Made by a program: the position numbers and the translations under genes. Shown here piece after piece: positions 2 to 12,239 of a DNA stretch of 12,239 nt; the stretch's first letter is position 1; each line of letters starts with the position of its first letter. This DNA comes from Oligoflexus sp. Lineage in GTDB: Bacteria > Bdellovibrionota_B > Oligoflexia > Oligoflexales > Oligoflexaceae. The stretch covers positions 1 to 12,239 of the forward strand of contig JBGSTX010000316.1 in the NCBI GenBank assembly GCA_041736305.1, written 5' to 3'. The notes beneath the pieces are model-generated. The model was not told the DNA's origin. It did not search any database and worked only from the letters and a program-made list of their open reading frames with translations.

Positions 2-682
2 TGGAAGACGCCCTCCTATCTCGGTTGGACTCAGCATAGGGACGGCAGTCTTTCGCTGGGCTTTCATACTCTTTCCGGACGCATTGTCGACAGCGATAAG
101 CGCCCACTCAAGTCGGCCCTGCGCGAGCTGATAGAGCAATACCGTCTCGATCTGCAGATAACACCAGAGCAGGATCTGATACTATACGGAGTCCCACCCA
201 GCGAGCAGCGCAAGATCGAAGCTTTCCTCGATGCGCGCGGCCTCAGTCCAGCAAGTCCACAAAAGCTCTACGATCGAGCGCTCACCTGCGTGGCGCTGCC
301 GACGTGTAGCAAAGCTTTGGCCGAAGCTGAACGGGCGGGCCCCGAAATTTTTGGCTGGCTGCAGGAAAGCCTCGATCGTCACGCGCTCAATGAGAGGGCA
401 CCTATCGTTCGCATCACGGGTTGCCCCAACGGTTGCGCGCGCCCTTATACCGCAGAAATCGGCCTGGTCGGCCAAATGCCTGGTCAGTATGCGGTCTATC
501 TCGGGGGGGATGTCGAAGGTTTGCGTCTTGCTAAAAAGATTAAAGACAAGGTTAAAATCGCTGAGCTGCCTGCCCTCTTCGATCGTCTGAGTGCCATCTG
601 GTCTGAGCACAGCTCCAGTGAAGAACGGCTCGGCGATTTCACCTGGCGCTACGGGCACGACGCTTTAGGAGCTGCCCTATGA
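2..682 (+). CDS. cysI: Sulfite reductase hemoprotein (CysI/Sir family), C-terminal part; gene starts before the window
   Basis: The frame is open from position 2 (WKTPSYLGWTQHRDG...SGRIVD...QITPEQDLIL...) and contains the siroheme/4Fe-4S ligand motifs CVALPTC and ITGCPNGCARPY followed by AEIGLVG. Its TGA stop (680-682) overlaps the cysH ATG (ATGA). The 290 start in the ORF track is internal. Confidence 0.93.
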   Translation, partial: WKTPSYLGWTQHRDGSLSLGFHTLSGRIVDSDKRPLKSALRELIEQYRLDLQITPEQDLILYGVPPSEQRKIEAFLDARGLSPASPQKLYDRALTCVALPTCSKALAEAERAGPEIFGWLQESLDRHALNERAPIVRITGCPNGCARPYTAEIGLVGQMPGQYAVYLGGDVEGLRLAKKIKDKVKIAELPALFDRLSAIWSEHSSSEERLGDFTWRYGHDALGAAL

Positions 683-1428
683 CAGCTTTCGCGCAGCGCA
701 CGGCCGCTGATCTAAATGAAGCCTACGGAGATCTGCCTCCCGGCGAACTTCTGAAACTGCTCTTCACTTGGTACCCAGCGAGTCAAACGAGTTTTGCCAA
801 CAGCTTTGGTCTTGAAGACATCGTCATCCAGCATCTGCTGCTCAGTTTTCCTGAGCAAGCTGAGAGTTTTGTGCTCGACACGGGTCGACTGCCCGAAGAA
901 ACTTACGAACTCATCGAGCGTTGGCGCCTCCGCTTCGGGCTGAGACCGCGGATCTTCAGCCCGCGAGCTGATCTGCTCGATGAATTCCTAAGTGAAAATG
1001 GTCCAAACGCCTTCTATCAATCGCAGATCTTGCGCAAAAGCTGTTGCGGCATTCGCAAGCTCGAGCCCCTCACCCGCGCTCTAGCTGGAAAAACCGCTTG
1101 GATCAGTGGGCTGCGCCGCGAGCAGTCGAGCGCCCGCGCTTCGCTCGAAGTCTTCGCCTATGACGAAGACCAGCGTCTCAAACTCAGCCCGCTCGCCAAT
1201 TGGAATTTGGACCAAGTATGGACCTACGTGAGGGAGCACAATCTCCCTTACAATCGCCTCCACGATCAGGGCTATCCGAGCATCGGTTGCGCGCCCTGTA
1301 CGCGCGCCGTCAGCGCAGGCGAAGATCTGCGCTCCGGTCGCTGGTGGTGGGAGACAGATTTGCAACGTGAGTGCGGACTTCACACCCCGCGCAGTGAAAG
1401 GACTGAGCATGCCACGCCACAGCGCTAA
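679..1428 (+). CDS. cysH: Adenosine 5'-phosphosulfate (APS) reductase, CysH family, 4Fe-4S type
   Basis: Motifs [50 protein letters not shown]. The CC plus CxxC set marks cluster-containing APS reductases rather than PAPS reductases. Confidence 0.95.
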
Positions 1429-2305
1429 TGACTCTTATCTTGATCAGCTCGAAGCTGAAAGCATCGATATCTTACGCGAAGTCGCAGCGAGCTATCAGCG
1501 GCCGGCCTTACTCTATTCCGTGGGCAAGGATTCGTCCGTGCTCTTGCATTTAGCGCAGAAAGCCTTTGTTCCAGGGAAACTCCCTTTCCCACTCGTCCAC
1601 ATCGACACGGGCTACAAATTCGGCGAGATGTACAGCTTCCGCGATCATACTGTGAAAGAACTGGGTCTCGAACTCATCGTCCATCGGAATGAGGATGCGA
1701 TAGCCCAAGGAACCCATCCGCAGAAACGCGGTACCAGCGCTTGCTGCGCTCTGCTTAAAACTGAGGCGCTGCTCGACGTTCTTCGTCGCTATGAAATCGA
1801 TGCGGCCATCGGTGGAGCCCGGCGGGATGAAGAACGCTCGCGGGCCAAAGAGAGGATATTCTCCTTCCGCGATCGACATGGTCAGTGGGATCCCAAGAAT
1901 CAGCGGCCCGAGCTCTGGCAGCTCTATAATACGCGAGTGCATCCAGGAGAAAATATGCGGGTTTTCCCGCTTAGTAACTGGACTGAGAGCGATATCTGGC
2001 ATTATATCCGCCGAGAAGAAATCCCCATCGTTCCTTTGTATTTTGCCGAAGAACGTTGGGTTATCGATAAGGGTAGCCTCTTGATTCCAAGCGATGCGCA
2101 AGATCCTCGCGCCACGCGGGTCCTGAGCCGATTCCGTACCCTTGGCTGCAGTCCTTGTACAGGAGCGATCCGTTCGCAGGCACAAAATCTCGATGAGATC
2201 ATCGAAGAACTCTTTGCAGTCAGGGTTTCCGAGCGAGCGACTCGGGTGATCGATCATGATCAAGATGCTTCTATGGAACTCAAGAAACGGGAGGGTTACT
2301 TCTGA
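1409..2305 (+). CDS. cysD: Sulfate adenylyltransferase subunit 2
   Basis: [17 protein letters not shown]-loop [50 protein letters not shown]-terminal [11 protein letters not shown]. Start placed at ATG 1409, after GAAAGGA (1396-1402). Confidence 0.96.
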
Positions 2306-3843
2306 TGCTCTACAATCGCGAACCCAAGGCTGTTCTACGCATCACAACGGCTGGCAGCGTCGACGACGGCAAATCTACTTTGATTGGACGGCTGCTCTAC
2401 GAATCTTCGGCTATTTATGAAGACCAGCTGGCGTCCTTGCAAGAGAAGAAATCCCGCTCAGGAACTAGAGATGGCAGTAGCACGATCGACCTTGCGCTCG
2501 TGACCGATGGCCTCAAGTCGGAGCGCGAGCAGGGCATTACGATCGATGTTGCGTACAAGTATTTTGCTAGCAGCGAGCGGAAGTTCATTCTCGCCGATGC
2601 ACCAGGACATGTTCAATATACCCGAAATATGGTGACCGCCGCCTCGCGGGCCGATGTAGCGATAATTCTCGTCGATGCGGCGCAGGGAGTTCTCGAGCAG
2701 ACCCGCCGTCATGCTTATCTCTTGCATCTGCTCGGCGTGCCCCAAATAGTTTTAGCCATCAATAAGATCGACTCCATAGGCTACGACGAGGTGCGTATAG
2801 CAGCGATCGAAGCTGACTTTCTCAGCCTCAGCTGGCAGCGGGATTCACGCGCTGCCCTTTCGGTTATTCCCATGAGTGCACTGCTCGGTTGTAACGTCCT
2901 AAAACGAAGCCCAAATACTCCATGGTATCGAGGGCCGAGCCTTCTCGAGCTGCTCAACACTCTCAATCCGCGTCGGCTTAGCAGCTCGGCCTTCCAGCTG
3001 CCCCTACAGTATGTAGGGCGCGACGCACATGGTCGGCGCTTTGCGGCGGGAACTCTGCAAAAAGGGACGATTCATCGAGGCGATCGCGTGCGGCTGCTGC
3101 CCTCACAACGCGAGAGTGAAATCGCCGCACTATGGGTGCATGGGGTGGCGACCGATCGCGCGGATGCTGCTAGCGCGGTGGCCATTGAACTGAGTGACGA
3201 ACTCGATCTCGAACGAGGCAACATTCTCGTGCCTAGGGAGTTAAAGCTGCAGCCGACCCGGCGCTTCAGCGCTCAGCTTGTGTGGTTCGACAATGAGCCT
3301 TGGCGAGCGCAGGAGCGGTATATTCTGAAGATGGGGACCCAAAGCAGTCGCGCCCAAATCGTTGAGATTGAATACCGTTACGATTTAGAGAAGCTGGAGG
3401 AATTGCCAGCTTCCGTGCTGCAGATGAACGATATCGCCAAAGTCCAAGTGCAGAGCGCCCGCCCTCTATTCGCAGAGTCTTATGCCGAAGATCGCGAGGC
3501 GGGCGCTTTTATTCTCATCGACCCCCAAACAAACCGTACCGTAGCGGCTGGGATGACCGAAGATCGGCTCGACGCTGCGGCAAGTCTTGCAGACTCACCT
3601 CTGAGTCGCCTCCAGCTGGTCGATTCACTGGACCGCTCCAAAGCCCTCTTATCCGGCCAACTGCTGCAGATTCCTCAGAGCTTTCTGGAGATCAACACCG
3701 ATACCGCACAGCTACATGCTTTAGGACTACTCTTGGAACTAGGCTGGTCCCTGCAAGTGGAGCATAGTCAGGAAGCCCGGAAACTCCAGCAGGGCCTGGC
3801 GGGCCTTGGCTATGGCTCCTTCGATCAAGGCTCCGGCATCTAA
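2305..3843 (+). CDS. cysN: Sulfate adenylyltransferase subunit 1 (GTPase) with an atypical ~95-aa C-terminal extension
   Basis: TAGSVDDGKSTLIGRLL, EREQGITIDVAY, DAPGH, YTRNMVT, NKID, GAFILID...TVAAGM. TGATG coupling to cysD. No APS-kinase P-loop in the extension. Confidence 0.95.
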   Translation: MLYNREPKAVLRITTAGSVDDGKSTLIGRLLYESSAIYEDQLASLQEKKSRSGTRDGSSTIDLALVTDGLKSEREQGITIDVAYKYFASSERKFILADAPGHVQYTRNMVTAASRADVAIILVDAAQGVLEQTRRHAYLLHLLGVPQIVLAINKIDSIGYDEVRIAAIEADFLSLSWQRDSRAALSVIPMSALLGCNVLKRSPNTPWYRGPSLLELLNTLNPRRLSSSAFQLPLQYVGRDAHGRRFAAGTLQKGTIHRGDRVRLLPSQRESEIAALWVHGVATDRADAASAVAIELSDELDLERGNILVPRELKLQPTRRFSAQLVWFDNEPWRAQERYILKMGTQSSRAQIVEIEYRYDLEKLEELPASVLQMNDIAKVQVQSARPLFAESYAEDREAGAFILIDPQTNRTVAAGMTEDRLDAAASLADSPLSRLQLVDSLDRSKALLSGQLLQIPQSFLEINTDTAQLHALGLLLELGWSLQVEHSQEARKLQQGLAGLGYGSFDQGSGI

Positions 3844-3903: not shown

Positions 3904-3932
3904 GAGAGCTTTGCGTCTTGAGGGGAGAAATC

Positions 3933-4751
3933 ATGAGCGGGACTCTGGAAACCTTTCTCCAGCAGCGTACTCTCGAACACGAGTTGCTCTGCAGCTATCA
4001 CGAAACTATTCAGGCTCTCATCCGTTTGAGCAGCAGTGGACTCCTCTTTGAGCGGGAGCCCCAGGCTTTTTTTAAAGTACAGATCGAACCTTTGCTCGAA
4101 AAACTGCTCGGCTGTCTCAGACGCACCTACACTGAAAACCATGCGGGTCTTAGGCGAGTTTCGGTGCAGGACCTCAGCCAGGACCTGCAGAAGATCGCCC
4201 CGCTGCTGCGCAGTGACATCGAAGCTGCGCTCAAGAATGATCCGGCTACCGAAGACCCACTCGAAATCCTCTTTTGCTATCCAGGCTTCAAAGCGATTAC
4301 AGCCTATCGGATCGCGCACGTCTTCTACCTCCGCTCGCTGCCGCTCATTCCGCGCATGATTGCTGAATTAGCCCACGAGCAGACGGGAATCGATATCCAC
4401 CCCGGAGCTGAGATCGGTTCGCACTTTTTTATCGATCACGGCACGGGAGTGGTGATCGGTGAGACGGCCATCATAGGTCAGGCGGTGACGCTCTATCAGG
4501 GAGTCACTTTGGGTGCAAAGAGCTTTGCACGAGACGCTGAGGGGACGGTGATCAAGGGCCAGCCGCGACATCCGATTCTAGAAGACCGGGTCACGGTCTA
4601 TGCGGGCGCGACAATTCTCGGTCGCATAACGATTGGAGCTGCGAGTATGATAGGCGGCAACGTGTGGCTGACCGAGAGCGTTCCTCCCAAGAGTCGCATC
4701 ACGCAGCAGCATTACCTAGCCCATTTTTTCCGTGATGGAGATGGAATTTAA
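3933..4751 (+). CDS. cysE: Serine O-acetyltransferase (CysE/EpsC-type)
   Basis: DPA...[53 protein letters not shown], hexapeptide repeats, C-terminal GDGI. ATG 3933 follows GAGGGGAG. Confidence 0.95.
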
Positions 4752-4768: not shown

Positions 4769-5713
4769 ATGCAAAGACGTCAGCGCCCTAAAATTGCTAA
4801 AAACATTCTGGAAACCATCGGCAATACGCCCTTGGTCCGCCTCAACAAACTCACGAAGGGTCTCAGCGCCGACATCCTACTCAAGCTGGAGTTCTTCAAT
4901 CCCCTTTCCAGCGTCAAAGATCGCATAGGCGCCGCTATGATAGAGGCTGCTGAAGAAAGCGGAGCACTCAAAGCCGGTATGACGATCGTCGAACCGACCA
5001 GCGGTAATACCGGAATCGCACTAGCTTTCGTTGCCGCGCAGAAAGACTATCGCCTTATTCTGACAATGCCCGAGACAATGAGCCTTGAACGACGGAAAAT
5101 GCTCAAGGCCCTAGGCGCAGAGCTGGTTCTTACGCCTGGCGATAAGGGAATGAAAGGAGCCATTGCTAAGGCCGAGGAGCTCGTGGGCAGCAATCCTAAT
5201 TACTTCATGCCGCAGCAGTTTAAAAACCAGGCGAACGTTCTGGCCCACAAGTCTTCAACGGCTCTCGAAATCTGGGATGACACGGATGGCGAAGTCGATA
5301 TCCTGATTTCTGGGGTTGGTACCGGTGGCACCATTACCGGCGTTTCAAGCGTTCTCAAGGAACTGAAGCCCGGCTTTAGAGCGATAGCGGTCGAGCCTCG
5401 CGATTCTCCCGTCCTTTCCGGTGGTCAAGCTGGACCGCACAAAATCCAAGGTATCGGTGCAGGCTTCGTACCCGACATTCTCGACAAGAGGCTGGTCGAC
5501 GAGATAGTTCCCGTGAGCAATGAAGAGGCAGGGATATGGGCCCGTCGCGCGGCGAAAGAAGAAGGTATACTGTGCGGAATTTCCTCAGGCGCAGCTATCG
5601 CTGCTGCTGTGCAGGTAGGAGCCCGGCCCGAAAACAAGGGTAAAACCATAGTCGTGATCATACCCAGTACCGGTGAGCGCTATCTTTCCACTTGGCTCTT
5701 TGATGATGCTTGA
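4769..5713 (+). CDS. cysK: Cysteine synthase A (O-acetylserine sulfhydrylase)
   Basis: [12 protein letters not shown] lysine in [64 protein letters not shown] at 4759-4763. Confidence 0.96.
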
Positions 5714-5851: not shown

Positions 5852-5903
5852 CGTCCTGTCTTGCAAGCCGCTACGCAGCTTTTGGAGACAGGATGTGTAC
5901 TTG

Positions 5904-5935
5904 AAAAAAGCCACGCTCCCGCGTGGTTTTTTTTT
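5904..5935 (+). terminator. Strong intrinsic terminator/attenuator inside the metB-like leader
   Basis: AAAAAAGCCACGC-TCCC-GCGTGG-TTTTTTTTT: a GC-rich stem plus 9 T, about 100 nt before the start codon. Confidence 0.85.
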
Positions 5936-6034
5936 GCGCAAATCCCGAGTAAATCGCTGATATTCGAGCGTCTTTTGAGGCGCGTCGCGATCCCTTGTTT
6001 TTTTCCTCGAAAGTACCTTACGGAGGATTTGCTC

Positions 6035-7219
6035 ATGTCTCAGGAAGCAAGCTTGTCAACGCTAGTCGTTCACGCCGGCGAAGCGCGTGAAAAAAGTGAC
6101 TTTGCCATCGTCGACCCCATTCACTGCGCGTCGACTTTCACCTTTGCCGACACGGCCGCAATCATCTCAATGCTCGAAAACGAAGGACTTGCCGAACGCG
6201 ACGAGTACGCACGCTACAGTAGTCCTAATATCAGGACGGTCGAGAAGAAGCTGGCTCAGCTCGAGGGGACCGCTGACGCCCTCCTCTGCACAACCGGAAT
6301 GTCCGCTCTCACGCTACTCTTTTGGAGTCATCTGCGGCCGGGCGATCACTTGCTTTACTTTGATCGCTGCTATCATCGCACTAGACAGTTCTGCAGCGAT
6401 TATCTCGAACAATTCGGGGTCCGCTGCGAAGCCATCCCGACCGGCGATTTTGCGGCCTTGGAAGCAGCCACCAACGCCAAGACCAAGTTGATTTTCACCG
6501 AACTGCCGACCAACCCCCACCTGGACGTCATCGATCTCGAGCGCCTCTGCAGCTTCGCTCGCGCCAAGGGCATAAAAACCTGTATCGACACGACCCTGGC
6601 GAGTCCCATCAACGTGCGGCCGGCTGAGTGGGGAGCCGACTTTATCCTGCATTCGGCGACCAAATATCTGGGTGGACATAATGATCTTCTCGCCGGCGTC
6701 CTTGCCGCTTCCGTCGAGGATTTGGCCCCAGTCCGCAAACTACAGGGTATCAGTGGTGCAATAGCGGCTCCTCATACGGCTTATCTCTTGCAAAGAGGGC
6801 TCAAGACTCTCGCTCTCCGCATCGCTCAGCAGAACCGCTCGGGCCAACGCGTGGCTGAATTTTTGGCCCAACACCCCCGAGTGGAAAAAGTCTACTATCC
6901 CGGGCTGGAAACGCATCCGAGCTATGCGCTGGCCCGCCGCTTTCTTAGTGGCTTTGGCGGTCTCATCAGCTTTGAACTCAAGACTGATAGGAAGGGTGCG
7001 AGTCGCTTCGTCGATGCGGTGCGGATCCCTCGCATAGGTCCAAGTCTAGGCGGGGTTGAATCCCTTATCGAACAACCGGCGATCATGAGTTTTTACCGAG
7101 CTTCCGAGGCCGAGCGGCGGCGCTGGGACATCAGCGATTCCTTAGTTCGTCTCGCGTTGGGAATCGAAGACAGTGAGGATCTCATTGCGGATCTTGAGCA
7201 AGCTTTAGCCACCATTTAA
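6035..7219 (+). CDS. metB: Cystathionine gamma-synthase, plant-type (Cys/Met metabolism PLP-dependent family)
   Basis: VHAGE, EYARY, CYHRTR, ELPTNP, PLP site HSATKYLGGHND, RGLKTLALR, YYPGL, PSLGGVESLIEQPAIMS. ATG 6035 follows GGAGG (6022-6026). The 5861 start in the ORF track lies within the leader. Confidence 0.8.
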   Translation: MSQEASLSTLVVHAGEAREKSDFAIVDPIHCASTFTFADTAAIISMLENEGLAERDEYARYSSPNIRTVEKKLAQLEGTADALLCTTGMSALTLLFWSHLRPGDHLLYFDRCYHRTRQFCSDYLEQFGVRCEAIPTGDFAALEAATNAKTKLIFTELPTNPHLDVIDLERLCSFARAKGIKTCIDTTLASPINVRPAEWGADFILHSATKYLGGHNDLLAGVLAASVEDLAPVRKLQGISGAIAAPHTAYLLQRGLKTLALRIAQQNRSGQRVAEFLAQHPRVEKVYYPGLETHPSYALARRFLSGFGGLISFELKTDRKGASRFVDAVRIPRIGPSLGGVESLIEQPAIMSFYRASEAERRRWDISDSLVRLALGIEDSEDLIADLEQALATI

Positions 7220-7231
7220 GAGGAGTAGTCC

Positions 7232-8443
7232 ATGCATCTTTCCACTCGGTCCATTCACAGTGGCAACAGCAAAGATCCGCTGACAGGCGCCGTCATCCCC
7301 CCGCTCTATCTTTCGTCGACATTTGCACCGGATGGGGATTTTTCTCAGGCACGCTTCGATTATTCCCGCAGCGGGAACCCGACTAGGGCCTGTCTGGAGA
7401 CGACTCTTGCGGCGCTCGAAGAAGGTTGCGGTGCCTTGGCTTTTTCCTCGGGCATGGCGGCTATCCACTGCGCTCTGCAGCTGCTCAAGACGGGCGAGCA
7501 TGTTCTCGCCAGCAGCGATATTTATGGAGGAACCTATCGCATCCTGCACAAAATCCTCAGTCGCGTGGGCATCGAAACGACCCTGGTTCAAATGAACGAT
7601 CTTGCGGCAGTTAGGGCCGCCATTCGCCCTAACACGCGCATCCTCTGGGCGGAGAATCCCGGCAATCCCCTGCTCTCGCTCGTAGATATCGAGGCGATAG
7701 CCGAGTTGGCCCACGAGCACGGTGCGCTCTTAGCTGTCGACAATACTTTCGCCACTCCGGTTGCGACACAAGCACTGACCCTCGGTGCCGATATCGTTAT
7801 GCATTCGGCTACTAAATTTCTCGGCGGTCACAGCGACCTCTTGGGGGGTGCCCTCATCGTCAAGGACCCAGCCTTGCTTAAGGAACTCTACTTCATCCAG
7901 AATGCAACGGGAGCCGTCATGGCTCCTTTCGATGCGTTTCTCTGTTCCCGCGGTATCAAGACCCTCGAGTTGCGTTTTCGAGAGCAGTGTAAAAGCGCCC
8001 TGTGGATCGCGCAGTACCTCGTTCATCATCCCGCCGTAAGCCGCGTCTACTACCCCGGTCTCCCTGATCATCCCCAGCACGCATTGGCGCAAAAACAACT
8101 GCGCGGCTACTACGGAGCAGTCGTCAGTTTCGAGCTTGATGCCGACTTTGCGGCAGCTCAGGCCTTTGTGAGCCATACCAAGCTTTTCCAGAGAGCCGTC
8201 AGTGTGGGGGCTGTAGAATCTCTTATTGAACAACCGGCTTCGATGTCGCATGCAAGCTACGACAGGCAGGATAGATTAAAAGCAGGCATACACGATGGCC
8301 TCATCCGACTCTCTGTGGGACTCGAGCATGTGCACGATTTACTAGCTGATTTGCAGCAGGCTTTTCATCATTTTAATGGAAGTGAGAAACGCGAGCTGGC
8401 AAGTTCTACGGCAGAGCTTCCGCTATCGACTCATGCCCATTAG
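7232..8443 (+). CDS. Cystathionine beta-/gamma-lyase (MetC/MccB-like trans-sulfuration enzyme)
   Basis: TGAVIPPLYLSSTF, FDYSRSGNPTR, FSSGMAAI, DIYGGTYR, VDNTFAT, HSATKFLGGHSD, SVGAVESLIEQPASMSHAS, GLIRLSVGLE. RBS AGGAG at 7221-7225. The family is secure; beta-lyase is favoured only because it is paired with the synthase. Confidence 0.85.
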   Translation: MHLSTRSIHSGNSKDPLTGAVIPPLYLSSTFAPDGDFSQARFDYSRSGNPTRACLETTLAALEEGCGALAFSSGMAAIHCALQLLKTGEHVLASSDIYGGTYRILHKILSRVGIETTLVQMNDLAAVRAAIRPNTRILWAENPGNPLLSLVDIEAIAELAHEHGALLAVDNTFATPVATQALTLGADIVMHSATKFLGGHSDLLGGALIVKDPALLKELYFIQNATGAVMAPFDAFLCSRGIKTLELRFREQCKSALWIAQYLVHHPAVSRVYYPGLPDHPQHALAQKQLRGYYGAVVSFELDADFAAAQAFVSHTKLFQRAVSVGAVESLIEQPASMSHASYDRQDRLKAGIHDGLIRLSVGLEHVHDLLADLQQAFHHFNGSEKRELASSTAELPLSTHAH

Positions 8444-9701: not shown

Positions 9702-12239
9702 CTAGAGTTCAAGTACGATGTGATGCTCTTGGCGATCATCGAACAGCGAAATAGGCCCGCAGATCTCGAGTCCATCTAGCATGGTTTTCATCGCACCACC
9801 TACTTTGCCCTCATTCTTAATCGTGACCTTGTAGGAAGTTTCTTTATAAGAGAAATTAATCCGTAATATGGGCCATGCGCTTGGGAGTCGTGGAGTCAAT
9901 ATTAAGTGATTTTCCCGTAGGTCAAAACCTAAAAATGTTTCGACGATACTCCGATAAAGCCAGGCGGACGATCCCGTATACCACGTCCACCCTCCTCTAC
10001 CACCGTGAGTTGGCGCTGCATAGACATCGGCAGCGACCACATAGGGTTCCACTTTGTAGCGGGCTATGGCTTCCGCTGTCGCACTGTGGTGAATGGGGTT
10101 GATGAGAGTGAGAAGTTCTAAAGCTCGATCGTGCTCTCCGAGCTGCGCAAAAGCCATGATCGCCCATACGGCAGCATGAGTATACTGACCTCCATTCTCT
10201 CTGACTCCCGGTAGGTATCCCCTGATGTAACCAGGATGAGGCAGCTGCTTATCAAAGGGGGGCTCGAAAAGCTTGATGAGTCCTAAGTCGCCACTGACAA
10301 GACGTTGGTAGACGGCGTCCATGCCTTGCTTGGCGCGATTTCCTGTCGATGCTCCTGACAGAACGGCCCAACTTTGGGGCAAAGAATCGATCTGGCATTC
10401 CTGATTTTCTGACGATCCGAGAGGCGATCCATCGTCAAAAAAGGCGCGCAGATACCAGGCCCCGTCCCAGCCATGCCGCTCTATATTTTGCTTGAGAAGA
10501 CCAGTCTGTTCCCCGCACATCTCTGCGACGGCAGGATCACTCCGACGAGCGGCTATCGCAGCAAATTTCTCTAAAGTTTGGTAGAGAAAGAAGGCCAGCC
10601 ACACGCTTTCTCCCTTCCCATGAAGGCCGACTTGATTCATCCCATCATTCCAATCTCCACAACCAATCAGGGGCAATCCATGGGTGCCGAATTTCAATCC
10701 ATATTTCAAAGCTCGGACGCAATGATCATAGAGATCGCCTGATTCCTCCGCAAGCAGAGGCAGGCTATAGTCAGATTCAGTAGAGTCTGGGAGAGGCTTG
10801 GCATTTAGGTAAGGCCTTTCCTCGCTAAGTATCGCCCAATCGCCCGTAACCCTTATGTAGTGCTCGGTGACAAATGGCAGCCAAAGATAGTCATCGCTAA
10901 TCTTGGTTCGCACCCCGCGACCACTAGGTGGATGCCACCAGTGCTGCACATCTCCCTCAAGAAACTGCCTGCCTGCGCAGCGCAGAATATGAGCGCGGAC
11001 CATTTCCGGAGCGCAGTATACGACAGCCATCATGTCCTGAAGCTGATCCCGGAAACCATAGGCTCCTCCAGACTGATAGAAACCGCTGCGCCCCCAAATG
11101 CGGCTGGCAATCGTTTGGTAGAGGAGCCAGCCGTTGGCCAACACATTGATGGCCTGATCAGGAGTCTCGATCTGGATACGCCTAAGCATCTGCGACCACA
11201 TCTGCTGAACATTCGTGAAAGCCACTTGCAGATGCGCCAGAGAACGGAATTGGCGCCCTAATCTTCGCACCTCCTGTATATCCCGCCCCACCCCAAAGAC
11301 GAGGGCCAATTCTTTGGTCCCACCCGGCTCTAGTTCACAGCTCACTTGCAGGGCCAAACACGGATCGAACAGACCTCCCACTTGATTGCTGAGCTCCCTG
11401 CGATCCATTGCCGCGGGGCAGTTTAAAGAACTATTACGACCAATAAACTCAGTGCGATCGCCCGTAAAACTGCTGGGCTTCTCACTCGCGCTTACAAAGG
11501 CGATACGTCCACGAAAGTCTGCGGCAAAGACATTGTGGCCATAGAGAATTCCGTTCGTGGCATCGAACTCACTCACAATCTGATTGGATGCCCTTGATCT
11601 GAGTTCGCCCAGAACCATTTCGAAATACGCTGTCAGTGAAAGCTTCCGAGTCCGCCCCGAAAGATTACTTAGCTTGAGCAAAAGAATTTTAACGGGCTCA
11701 TCAGACGCGACGAAGACAGTCAGCTCAGAGCTGATGCCATGAGCACTCGTAGAAAAGATGCTGTAACCAAAGCCATGACGAACCTTGTAAGCGCCCTGTG
11801 TGGGTCTCGGCGCTGGCGTTGGTGACCAGTATTCGCCACTGAGTTCGTCCCTAATGTAGAGGGCTTCGCCCGTTGGATCAGATACGGGATCATTAAACCA
11901 AGGCGTAAGTCGATGTTCATGAGCATTTTCGGACCAGGTATAAGCACTTCCTCTTTCTGAAACGAGAGTCCCAAAATCAGGATTGGCCAAAACATTGACC
12001 CAAGGCATGGGGGTCGTTCGATCGGCATCGAGGCGCATGACATATTCACGTCCGTCTTGACTGAATCCTCCAATCCCATTATCAGAGAATAGCTCATCAG
12101 CGTTCTTCTGCTGATGGCGTATTTCGGGGCCCCGGGTTCTCTTGCGTCTTGCGAGTTCTCGCGTCGATAGTCCCTTTGGCAAGGCTGCAGGGGCTACGCG
12201 CTCAGCATTGATCTGCTCCGCCAAGCTACCTGCCTGATC
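9702..12239 (-). CDS. ndvB: GH94 glycoside phosphorylase domain, C-terminal part of a cyclic beta-1,2-glucan synthase (NdvB/ChvB/Cgs-like); gene starts beyond the window
   Basis: The frame is open to the window edge (DQAGSLAEQI...). Motifs NGIGGFSQDGREY, PWVNVLAN, RLTPW, RSGFYQSGGAYGFRDQLQD, GDVQHWWH, catalytic GDWNDGMN, PGVRENGGQYTHAA, EPYVVAADVY, GRGGWTWYTGS. Confidence 0.9.
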   Translation of the reverse strand, partial: DQAGSLAEQINAERVAPAALPKGLSTRELARRKRTRGPEIRHQQKNADELFSDNGIGGFSQDGREYVMRLDADRTTPMPWVNVLANPDFGTLVSERGSAYTWSENAHEHRLTPWFNDPVSDPTGEALYIRDELSGEYWSPTPAPRPTQGAYKVRHGFGYSIFSTSAHGISSELTVFVASDEPVKILLLKLSNLSGRTRKLSLTAYFEMVLGELRSRASNQIVSEFDATNGILYGHNVFAADFRGRIAFVSASEKPSSFTGDRTEFIGRNSSLNCPAAMDRRELSNQVGGLFDPCLALQVSCELEPGGTKELALVFGVGRDIQEVRRLGRQFRSLAHLQVAFTNVQQMWSQMLRRIQIETPDQAINVLANGWLLYQTIASRIWGRSGFYQSGGAYGFRDQLQDMMAVVYCAPEMVRAHILRCAGRQFLEGDVQHWWHPPSGRGVRTKISDDYLWLPFVTEHYIRVTGDWAILSEERPYLNAKPLPDSTESDYSLPLLAEESGDLYDHCVRALKYGLKFGTHGLPLIGCGDWNDGMNQVGLHGKGESVWLAFFLYQTLEKFAAIAARRSDPAVAEMCGEQTGLLKQNIERHGWDGAWYLRAFFDDGSPLGSSENQECQIDSLPQSWAVLSGASTGNRAKQGMDAVYQRLVSGDLGLIKLFEPPFDKQLPHPGYIRGYLPGVRENGGQYTHAAVWAIMAFAQLGEHDRALELLTLINPIHHSATAEAIARYKVEPYVVAADVYAAPTHGGRGGWTWYTGSSAWLYRSIVETFLGFDLRENHLILTPRLPSAWPILRINFSYKETSYKVTIKNEGKVGGAMKTMLDGLEICGPISLFDDRQEHHIVLEL

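Follow-up and report, generated by a model that had tools for sequence, protein, structure and literature searches.

The analysed stretch of DNA, here named the window, comprises 12,239 nucleotides of an Oligoflexus sp. contig and contains a sulfate-assimilation operon, with the genes described here on the forward (+) strand. The 3' part of a sulfite reductase hemoprotein gene (sir/cysI, 2..682) runs off the window start; residues 2-219 of its product match profile positions 345-563 of 575 in NF010029, and the Pfam domains NIR_SIR_ferr and NIR_SIR were found. It is followed by cysH (679..1428), encoding a (P)APS reductase (NF002537, 242.1 bits with a cut-off of 154; TIGR02055 APS_reductase, 232.6 bits with a cut-off of 235.3), and by cysD (1367..2305), encoding the small subunit of ATP sulfurylase (TIGR02039, 444.7 bits, cut-off 396.6). 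With sir and cysH upstream, cysD is paired with cysN, the stop of the former overlapping the start of the latter by one nucleotide at 2305, and the gene order continues as cysN, cysE and cysK.

The cysN gene is an open reading frame of 512 codons (2305-3843). Its GTPase core (residues 1-427, 2305..3585) scored 471.7 bits against TIGR02034 (cut-off 336.1) over residues 11-417, a match that covers the GTPase domain together with domains II and III, which are EF-Tu-like, and contains the Pfam domains GTP_EFTU and GTP-eEF1A_C. The core is followed by an extension of ~85 residues, composed of residues 428-505 (3586..3819) and a seven-residue tail with its stop codon (3820..3843). No Pfam or NCBIfam match was found in CysN past residue about 427.

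CysE and CysK encoded downstream of cysN

The cysE gene (3933..4751) encodes a serine acetyltransferase with the Pfam domains Hexapep and SATase_N. Its ATG at 3933 comes after a GAGGGGAG stretch, and the first possible start is a TTG at 3918. The product scored 165.5 bits against the EpsC-type SAT model NF041874 (cut-off 150) and 173.4 bits against TIGR01172 for cysE (cut-off 210.65); we favour its designation as CysE on the basis of its isoleucine tail and its position between cysN and cysK. The tail (4728-4748) and stop, at 4728-4751, read ttc cgt gat gga gat gga att taa, or F-R-D-G-D-G-I-stop, and residues F266, D268, G269, G271 and I272 were invariant in six aligned orthologues.

The cysK gene (4769..5713) starts 17 nt after the end of cysE and encodes O-acetylserine sulfhydrylase A, the proposed docking target of the CysN tail. 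The protein scored 459.6 bits against TIGR01139 (cut-off 350.95) and 282.4 bits against the cysM model TIGR01138, below its cut-off, indicating a sulfhydrylase of the CysK type and not of the CysM type. A full-length match (E = 1.5e-126) was obtained with the PDB chain of 2q3b/2q3c/2q3d, and the entry 2Q3C, according to PMC9547175, shows M. tuberculosis CysK1 together with the D-F-S-I peptide of CysE. Positions K50, T77-S-G-N-T81, Q150-F151, G182/G184-T-G-G187, G228/G230-A-G-F233 and S272 were invariant in 22 orthologues. The active-site motifs listed for peptide-bound H. influenzae CysK (T-S-G-N-T, Q-F, G-V-G-T, G-I-G-A and a serine; PMC9547175) are all carried by the CysK of the window. Two CysK paralogues, 42% and 34% identical, are also present in the genome, the CBS-like one on contig C90. 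Two Cys/Met PLP enzymes are encoded downstream.

The C-terminal extension and tail of CysN

CysN ends at 3820-3843 with the codons ttc gat caa ggc tcc ggc atc taa, that is F506-D-Q-G-S-G-I512 followed by the stop, with the free terminal isoleucine and stop at 3838-3843 (atc taa). A preliminary description of this DNA had reported this ending, the F-R-D-G-D-G-I end of CysE and cysK as the next gene, and a reading of both ends and of the cysK start confirmed them; the E. coli CysE tail FEYGDGI that it quoted was likewise found in the K-12 record, which ends ...H-T-F-E-Y-G-D-G-I. As in the cysteine synthase complex, the tail combines a free terminal isoleucine after G-x-G with an aromatic residue at the seventh position counted from the end, a pattern shared by the CysE proteins of E. 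coli K-12 and of the window. The last four codons differ between cysN (ggc tcc ggc atc) and cysE (gga gat gga att), indicating that the likeness is at the protein level. A copying of the cysE tail as DNA into cysN was rejected for the same reason.

The frequency of such endings was estimated from a roughly compiled set of 4359 non-overlapping ORFs, each of 100 aa or more, covering the whole 5.02-Mb genome. The full pattern [FY]-x-x-G-x-G-I was found at the C-terminus of two ORFs, with 0.08 expected, and these were CysN and CysE, adjacent to each other and beside cysK. The shorter G-x-G-I ended 3/4359 ORFs, against 1.65 predicted by how often the motif occurs internally. The third of these ORFs encodes an unrelated response regulator. 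A CysA (sulfate-pump ATPase) with an Ile tail was also looked for in this genome, and no match above the TIGR00968 cut-off was found.

Conservation of the tail in close homologues, on which the preliminary description had staked its proposal beforehand, was borne out: a terminal G-x-G-I was found in 16 of the 18 distinct extension sequences, a count that overstates independence given that the compared genomes are mutually related. The extension itself was seen only in Oligoflexus-type CysN in the homologue searches, and in nine relatives it was only 27-35% identical to the version of the window, yet the tail was retained, which points to selection on it. The tail was kept in one genome (G003) although cysE and cysK are not beside its cysN. 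The motif was absent from the full-length orthologue of G009 (identical to P0007), which ends ...F-E-D-A-L-V-G-S-A-D, from the fragment P0009, which ends G-L-G-Leu, and from G033, the closest outgroup, which has a truncated extension, indicating that the tail is dispensable in some genomes. A frameshift behind the divergent G009 tail was considered, and the DNA reading gave no simple one-base explanation.

For the extension, which matches no family model, a small alpha/beta domain is predicted, and it carries a conserved L-L-E-L-G-W motif. A profile search among 1.84 billion representatives gave five matches with E <= 0.001, three of them <= 1e-10; the three best were CysN or CysN fragments, the fourth was an 86-residue fragment like the extension, and the fifth was P0011, of 837 aa (E 8.8e-4). 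No usable match was obtained with the extension in a protein atlas search, nor any match below E = 0.9 in a Foldseek search of the PDB. In the AF2 model of CysN, residues 451-500 had a pLDDT of about 80 (76 for the extension modelled alone), residues F506-Q508 formed a short strand on the extension domain, and the last four residues (509-512) fell below 50, as did residues 83-85 of the extension-only model. These models predict a folded domain with flexible last four residues, as expected of a free docking tail, and the modelled strand suggests that part of the seven-residue pattern may be conserved for folding.

Like CysNC fusions, the CysN of the window has an extra C-terminal module after the same core end (...T-V-A-A-G-M), and CysNC forms occur in the same family (the second copy in G006, and G058). 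Unlike them, the extension comprises only 85 residues and has no P-loop. A CysNC fusion was rejected, as NF004035 matched CysN only at profile positions 17-439 of 632, with 521 bits against a cut-off of 715 bits. A vestigial CysC domain was not supported; hhalign with the CysC (APS kinase) domain gave a probability of 0.06. The extension may nevertheless be such a remnant, because several of its weak look-alikes, which appeared in the fold search only with E above 1, are P-loop or APS kinases.

Isoleucine tails on CysN of other lineages

As a control set, 80 diverse loci of distant CysN (40-48% identity) were taken from a whole-CysN scan of genome contigs. Extensions longer than 130 aa were found in 30 of them, and short non-CysC extensions of 8-130 aa in 21. 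Eleven of the latter, whose extensions measure 15-21 aa, end in [FY]-x-I. According to peptide studies, CysK binding is favoured by an aromatic third-last residue (PMC9547175). The tailed proteins belong to Hymenobacter, other Bacteroidota and Verrucomicrobiota, they map to at least three separate places in the CysN tree, all outside the Oligoflexus clade, and their extensions are unrelated to the Oligoflexus-type one.

The ends of CysN and CysE were compared within these genomes. In three Hymenobacter genomes CysN ends A-F-S-I and CysE ends [MV]-F-S-I, while the respective ends of CysN and CysE were F-T-I and F-D-I in Pedosphaera, F-A-I and W-E-I in Chthoniobacterales, Y-E-I and F-S-I in Opitutaceae, and F-A-I and Y-Y-I in G075. 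Taken as sequences, the Ile tails on CysN look like a repeated, lineage-matched mimicry of CysE. The matching is not universal, since CysE lacked the terminal isoleucine in three of the ten non-Oligoflexus genomes with a tailed CysN and a CysE that was found (...F-R-M in G064, ...P-T-A in G068 and ...G-A-G in G069).

Proposed docking of CysN on CysK as a regulatory link

For CysE it is established that its tail binds CysK, that CysK is inhibited and that O-acetylserine causes release (PMC6829319, PMC9547175). Binding of the pentapeptide Y-G-D-G-I from Salmonella CysE to CysK has a Kd of 11.8 uM, and the terminal isoleucine is the main anchor (PMC9547175). We propose that CysN of the Oligoflexus-type lineage gained a C-terminal domain of ~85 residues ending in a flexible [FY]-x-x-G-x-G-Ile-COOH, which would copy the C-terminal tail of the organism's own CysE. 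The tail would dock in CysK's active site, tethering CysDN to a CysK protomer; with two active sites per CysK dimer, CysN and CysE would either compete or share one dimer. O-acetylserine would expel the CysN tail, as in the cysteine synthase complex, and the first step of sulfate assimilation would come under the O-acetylserine/sulfide sensor that controls the final two.

From the sequences and models, we give such a docking, and with it an O-acetylserine-sensitive CysDN-CysK link, a probability of about 60%; the arrangement suggests that the first and last sulfur-assimilation enzymes are physically tied together. We infer the binding of the tail, its sensitivity to O-acetylserine and whether the activity of ATP sulfurylase or CysK would be raised or lowered. 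The docking is partly supported by in silico checks that were all favourable, namely tail conservation, predicted flexibility, a canonical CysK and the Ile tails of unrelated CysN lineages, gained independently and similar to the tails of their own CysE. Complex prediction with CysK and the CysN extension gave 0.24 in both runs against a mark of 0.32 (22-row and 10-row alignments, respectively, without controls), which counts neither for nor against it.

The conserved tail could instead serve the extension domain as a structural element or turn, form an intramolecular latch on CysN or CysD, or bind a different partner, its likeness to CysE being a side effect. The packing of the F506-Q508 strand on the domain agrees with such a role, as do the tail-less G009 and G033 and the fact that Gly-rich ends can be kept for turns. 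The two CysK paralogues of the genome also agree with it, and candidates for a different partner could be the CBS-like one on contig C90 and the two downstream Cys/Met PLP enzymes. However, the model leaves the last four residues disordered, and the tails of other phyla are borne on linkers of 15-21 residues without any domain. Moreover, a purely structural role does not predict that tails would track the CysE of the same lineage, as in Hymenobacter (F-S-I in both proteins). On balance we regard a role of this kind as unlikely.

It is highly improbable that the tail is another C-terminal signal, read by a PDZ domain, a tail-specific protease or a quality control system and setting the turnover of CysN instead of a tether to CysK. 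PDZ domains and tail-specific proteases do read hydrophobic C-terminal residues, but no pointer to a system of this type was found in the window or in the relatives, and the seven-position match to CysE, the adjacency of cysE and cysK, and the lineage-specific co-variation with CysE would be left unexplained. A chance resemblance of a neutral Gly-rich end to the CysE tail is very unlikely, for although the bare G-x-G-I is not rare, the full pattern occurred only in CysN and CysE, and the tail was kept in most of the distinct relatives while the extension drifted to about 30% identity.

The proposed docking of CysN on CysK also resembles the cysteine synthase complex in the predicted flexibility of the tail and in the location of the genes in one operon with cysK. 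It differs in the carrier of the tail, which is here the GTPase subunit of ATP sulfurylase and not an acetyltransferase, and in that the tail hangs on a domain without a known family or solved-fold match. Three partners of CysK other than CysE are listed in PMC12895370: CdiA-CT of E. coli (G-Y-G-I), CymR in B. subtilis and S. aureus, and EGL-9, which pairs with the C. elegans CysK homologue. The CdiA-CT toxin is also described in PMC6829319. In these cases an unrelated protein borrows the insertion of the C-terminal isoleucine of CysE into the CysK active site, as proposed for CysN. They comprise a toxin, a transcription factor and a prolyl hydroxylase, whereas CysN is a pathway enzyme upstream of CysK, and its use of this Ile-tail trick would be a first for an enzyme of the same pathway. 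CysN is absent from the 2026 list of CysK partners in PMC12895370, and no description of a CysN-CysK tail was found in the titles and abstracts of the literature searched. With its tail, CysN would join an already known docking mechanism as a new client.

The CysN of E. coli K-12 ends ...A-R-D-L-L-G-D-K, without an Ile tail. O-acetylserine sulfhydrylase reportedly binds E. coli ATP sulfurylase (CysDN) and alters its kinetics, in work attributed to Wei et al. in 2002, and to our knowledge no structural basis was given for this interaction. It involves the same two enzymes, with the first pathway step sensing the last; given the E. coli CysN end, it is not mediated by this motif. A broader reading is that CysK is a general post-translational hub that serves all of sulfate assimilation and not CysE alone, with CysN as a client. 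CysN would have gained a CysE-mimicking Ile tail several times independently, borne on a domain in Oligoflexus-type bacteria and on short linkers in Hymenobacter, other Bacteroidota and Verrucomicrobiota, each tail tuned to the CysK pocket of its lineage. CysK would bind and regulate ATP sulfurylase in response to O-acetylserine and sulfide levels, and in some Verrucomicrobiota, whose CysE lacks an Ile tail, CysN may be the main CysK client. We hold this reading tentatively, at a little under even odds; if true, it would offer a structural route to the long-unexplained kinetic coupling reported for the two E. coli enzymes.

Mimicry of the CysK-CysE peptide is a template for inhibitor design (PMC9547175), which gives further natural tails a value as data. 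With convergence apparent in three phyla, cultivable organisms such as Hymenobacter are available for tests. CysDN carries out sulfate activation, the first and energetically costliest step of cysteine synthesis, and no direct protein-level feedback on this step from the pathway's end is known to have a structural basis. A CysN client would also explain why more CysK than CysE is produced. If the docking is true, one pathway enzyme would be added to the short list of CysK clients (CysE, CdiA-CT, CymR and EGL-9), and the O-acetylserine/sulfide switch that operates in the cysteine synthase complex would extend to ATP sulfurylase.

Tails of CysN and CysE in the sulfate-assimilation operon

The plus strand of the window encodes a sulfate-assimilation and cysteine operon, from sir (2-682, its 5' end lying beyond the window) through cysH (679-1428), cysD (1367-2305), cysN (2305-3843, 512 residues), cysE (3933-4751) and cysK (4769-5713, starting 17 nt after cysE) to two adjoining genes for Cys/Met-metabolism PLP enzymes (5861-7219 and 7232-8443). 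Neither PLP enzyme reached an equivalog cut-off; they may act in transsulfuration or in sulfhydrylation, and the first has ~60 additional N-terminal residues if its TTG start is real. A GH94 phosphorylase-like gene is found on the minus strand (9702-12224). The cysH product scored 232.6 bits, just below the 235.3 cut-off of the thioredoxin-dependent APS reductase model, and no cysC was found in the operon; sulfate is probably processed via APS, not PAPS. The cysE product scored above the NF041874 (EpsC-type) cut-off and below the TIGR01172 cysE cut-off, and its SATase_N match covers residues 82-129 only, residues 1 to ~80 lying outside it. A search of this genome for CysA, the ATPase of the sulfate pump, gave no match above the cut-off.

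CysN terminates in F-D-Q-G-S-G-I (with stop, 3820-3843) and CysE in F-R-D-G-D-G-I (with stop, 4728-4751). The preliminary description had noted that both tails read F-x-x-G-x-G-I, with cysK next, which is exact by reading of the window, and had given the E. coli CysE tail as F-E-Y-G-D-G-I, which the K-12 record bears out. The pattern F-x-x-G-x-G-I-COOH fits all three tails.

Insertion of a client protein's C-terminal Ile into CysK is already known, and clients other than CysE named in the discussion of a February 2026 paper are CdiA-CT, EGL-9 and CymR (PMC12895370). The window CysK scored above the CysK equivalog cut-off, with a cysM score below its cut-off, and aligns end to end with the chain of PDB 2q3b/2q3c/2q3d (E = 1.5e-126); in the text of one review, 2Q3C is M. 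tuberculosis CysK1 together with D-F-S-I, the native peptide of CysE (PMC9547175). The motifs that surround the peptide in H. influenzae CysK, according to the same text (the PLP lysine, T-S-G-N-T, Q-F, G-V-G-T, G-I-G-A and a Ser; PMC9547175), are all present in the window CysK and invariant in 22 orthologues. That text also attributes most of the binding energy of the CysE peptide to the terminal Ile, gives a Kd of 11.8 uM for the Salmonella pentapeptide Y-G-D-G-I, and reports better binding with a hydrophobic or aromatic third-last residue (PMC9547175).

The reading we favor, supported as far as sequence analysis reaches, is that the CysN tail would dock in the CysK active site (probability roughly 0.6). 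Neither this tail nor docking of CysN in CysK was found described in the literature searched (titles and abstracts), and PMC6829319, in the passages covered, mentions CysD and CysN only as a complex with each other.

The CysN extension and conservation of its tail

The CysN family models span residues 1 to ~427 (TIGR02034, 471.7 bits), and no Pfam or NCBIfam model matches residues 428-512. An AlphaFold2 model of CysN (19-row alignment, mean pLDDT 80.7) showed a small alpha/beta domain at residues 436-500 (pLDDT ~80), a short strand at F506-Q508, and pLDDT <50 for the last four residues; the extension modelled by itself behaved in the same way. A Foldseek search of the PDB with this domain gave no significant neighbour (best E 0.93), and its non-significant look-alikes (E >0.9) include several P-loop and APS kinases (2yvu, 1xnj, 2pey and 2ofw). 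These look-alikes hint at a possible vestigial CysC domain, but hhalign does not support this, since the profile of the extension (window 3586-3819) did not resemble that of the APS-kinase domain in a CysNC fusion (probability 0.06).

A structural role for the tail, or a partner other than CysK, is a less likely explanation. CysN matches (E <= 1e-50) were found in 17 of 61 related genomes. The complete extension is present in ten, of which nine (the window's own genome counted) belong to the same genus as the window and the tenth to a different genus of that family. In nine of these ten, CysN ends in G-x-G-I. With the additional members supplied by two large protein searches, and identical sequences collapsed, the terminal G-x-G-I is kept in 16 of 18 distinct extension sequences, so the conservation that the preliminary description had proposed to check for was found. 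Identity to the window's extension is only 27-35%, and the most conserved parts are the tail and an L-L-E-L-G-W motif. The extension is rare: when 1.84 billion cluster representatives were searched with its profile, five matched (E <= 0.001).

One of the two exceptions is a fragment (P0009) ending in G-L-G-L. The other, the CysN of genome G009 (L011:2920-2988, identical to P0007), ends in ...F-E-D-A-L-V-G-S-A-D and is the only full-length CysN of the Oligoflexus type, as we call the lineage with this extension, to lack the tail; no simple frameshift explains its sequence, and cysE (tail G-D-G-I) and cysK are intact beside it. Genome G003 keeps the tail although no cysE follows its cysN and cysK lies on a different contig. 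The nearest outgroup (G033, core 59% identical) has a truncated extension without the tail. In the same family, the CysN of G021 (L022, 42% identical) carries a non-homologous extension of ~100 residues that also ends in G-G-G-I, its CysE ending in G-D-G-I. In G015 and G014, to which it is most closely related, CysN ends in E-T-G-L and G-S-L-S. The G021 tail may have been gained separately, as a second event in this family.

That the CysN tail is a signal for a protease or a PDZ domain is improbable. Chance likeness of the two tails is just as improbable: in a crude set of 4359 ORFs (>=100 aa, without overlaps) covering the whole 5.02-Mb genome, three end in G-x-G-I (1.65 expected), and [FY]-x-x-G-x-G-I ends CysN and CysE only. 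For the latter pattern the expectation is 0.08, as it occurs 28 times internally in 1.5 million residues. The third G-x-G-I ORF encodes an unrelated 130-residue stand-alone receiver-domain protein (...A-E-G-A-G-I; L152:2093-2485, contig C311 of the same genome), probably so ended by chance given the 1.65 expected. The tail codons differ (ggc tcc ggc atc in cysN, gga gat gga att in cysE), which rules out a copied DNA stretch as the source of the likeness.

Ile tails of CysN in other phyla

A scan of contigs with the whole CysN provided a control set of 80 distant loci from many phyla (40-48% identical), of which 78 are complete ORFs; none of these ends in G-x-G-I, and 18 end in Ile. Sorted by the residues that follow the core end (...T-V-A-A-G-M), 25 of the 80 stop within 7 residues, the extension is long (>130 aa, CysC-type) in 30 and measures 8-130 residues in 21, two lack the core-end motif and two are incomplete. 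An [FY]-x-I end was found in 11 of the 21 with short extensions, all 11 of 15-21 residues: four of Hymenobacter type (L084, L085, L099 and L134; ...[AT]-F-S-I), a Saprospiraceae MAG (L116; E-F-A-I) and, out of eight Verrucomicrobiota, six (L058, L071, L103, L110, L120 and L122), among which the ends A-F-A-I, E-F-I-I, E-Y-E-I, D-F-T-I, D-F-A-I and D-F-M-I occur. A seventh Verrucomicrobiota locus, from a MAG (L102), has E-Y-D-D-F-A-I internally and continues for another 22 residues, which suggests a lost stop codon or an error in the contig. An order-level sample around Hymenobacter showed the tail in 2 of 18 CysN, those of Hymenobacter itself and G075 (L168, E-F-A-I).

Quick maximum-likelihood analysis of 113 CysN cores (115 loci entered, two incomplete ORFs dropped) gave a tree with tailed CysN placed separately in the Oligoflexus clade (support 100), at G021 in a sister group, in a Bacteroidota group, in a Verrucomicrobiota group (support 95) and at L058 alone. 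The short Bacteroidota and Verrucomicrobiota extensions and that of G021 could not be aligned with the Oligoflexus domain. We read the Ile tails as acquired repeatedly, although horizontal transfer may also have occurred within phyla.

Pairing of tails and the proposed complex

Outside Oligoflexus, CysE ends in Ile in 7 of 10 genomes with a tailed CysN and a CysE found, a small sample of genomes related to one another. The CysN and CysE ends are A-F-S-I and [MV]-F-S-I in three Hymenobacter genomes, whose last three residues are thus equal, F-T-I and F-D-I in Pedosphaera, F-A-I and W-E-I in Chthoniobacterales, Y-E-I and D-F-S-I in Opitutaceae, and F-A-I and Y-Y-I in G075. In three Verrucomicrobiota with CysN ending in F-M-I (G064, L139), F-A-I (G068, L149) and F-I-I (G069, L147), the only strong CysE homologues end in F-R-M, P-T-A and G-A-G, respectively; for G067, no CysE was found at E <= 1e-30. 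A CysK above the cut-off was found in all five tailed genomes tested, including these three without Ile on CysE. In two Bacteroidota whose CysN stops at the core (G087 and G081; L171 and L172), CysE ends in Y-F-F and S-I-L, so that neither protein is Ile-ended there.

Wei et al. reportedly found in 2002 that ATP sulfurylase and the sulfhydrylase of E. coli interact functionally. The CysN of E. coli K-12 has no Ile tail, so that interaction must work differently.

The Oligoflexus pair (both G-x-G-I) and the Hymenobacter pair (both F-S-I) are what a shared pocket predicts, in few and related genomes. By analogy, a CysN-CysK complex would be expected to act like the cysteine synthase complex, with each CysK protomer holding a single CysN tail that blocks it for as long as the two are bound, and with O-acetylserine expelling the tail. 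CysN and CysE would then compete for CysK, or a single CysK dimer could bridge both.
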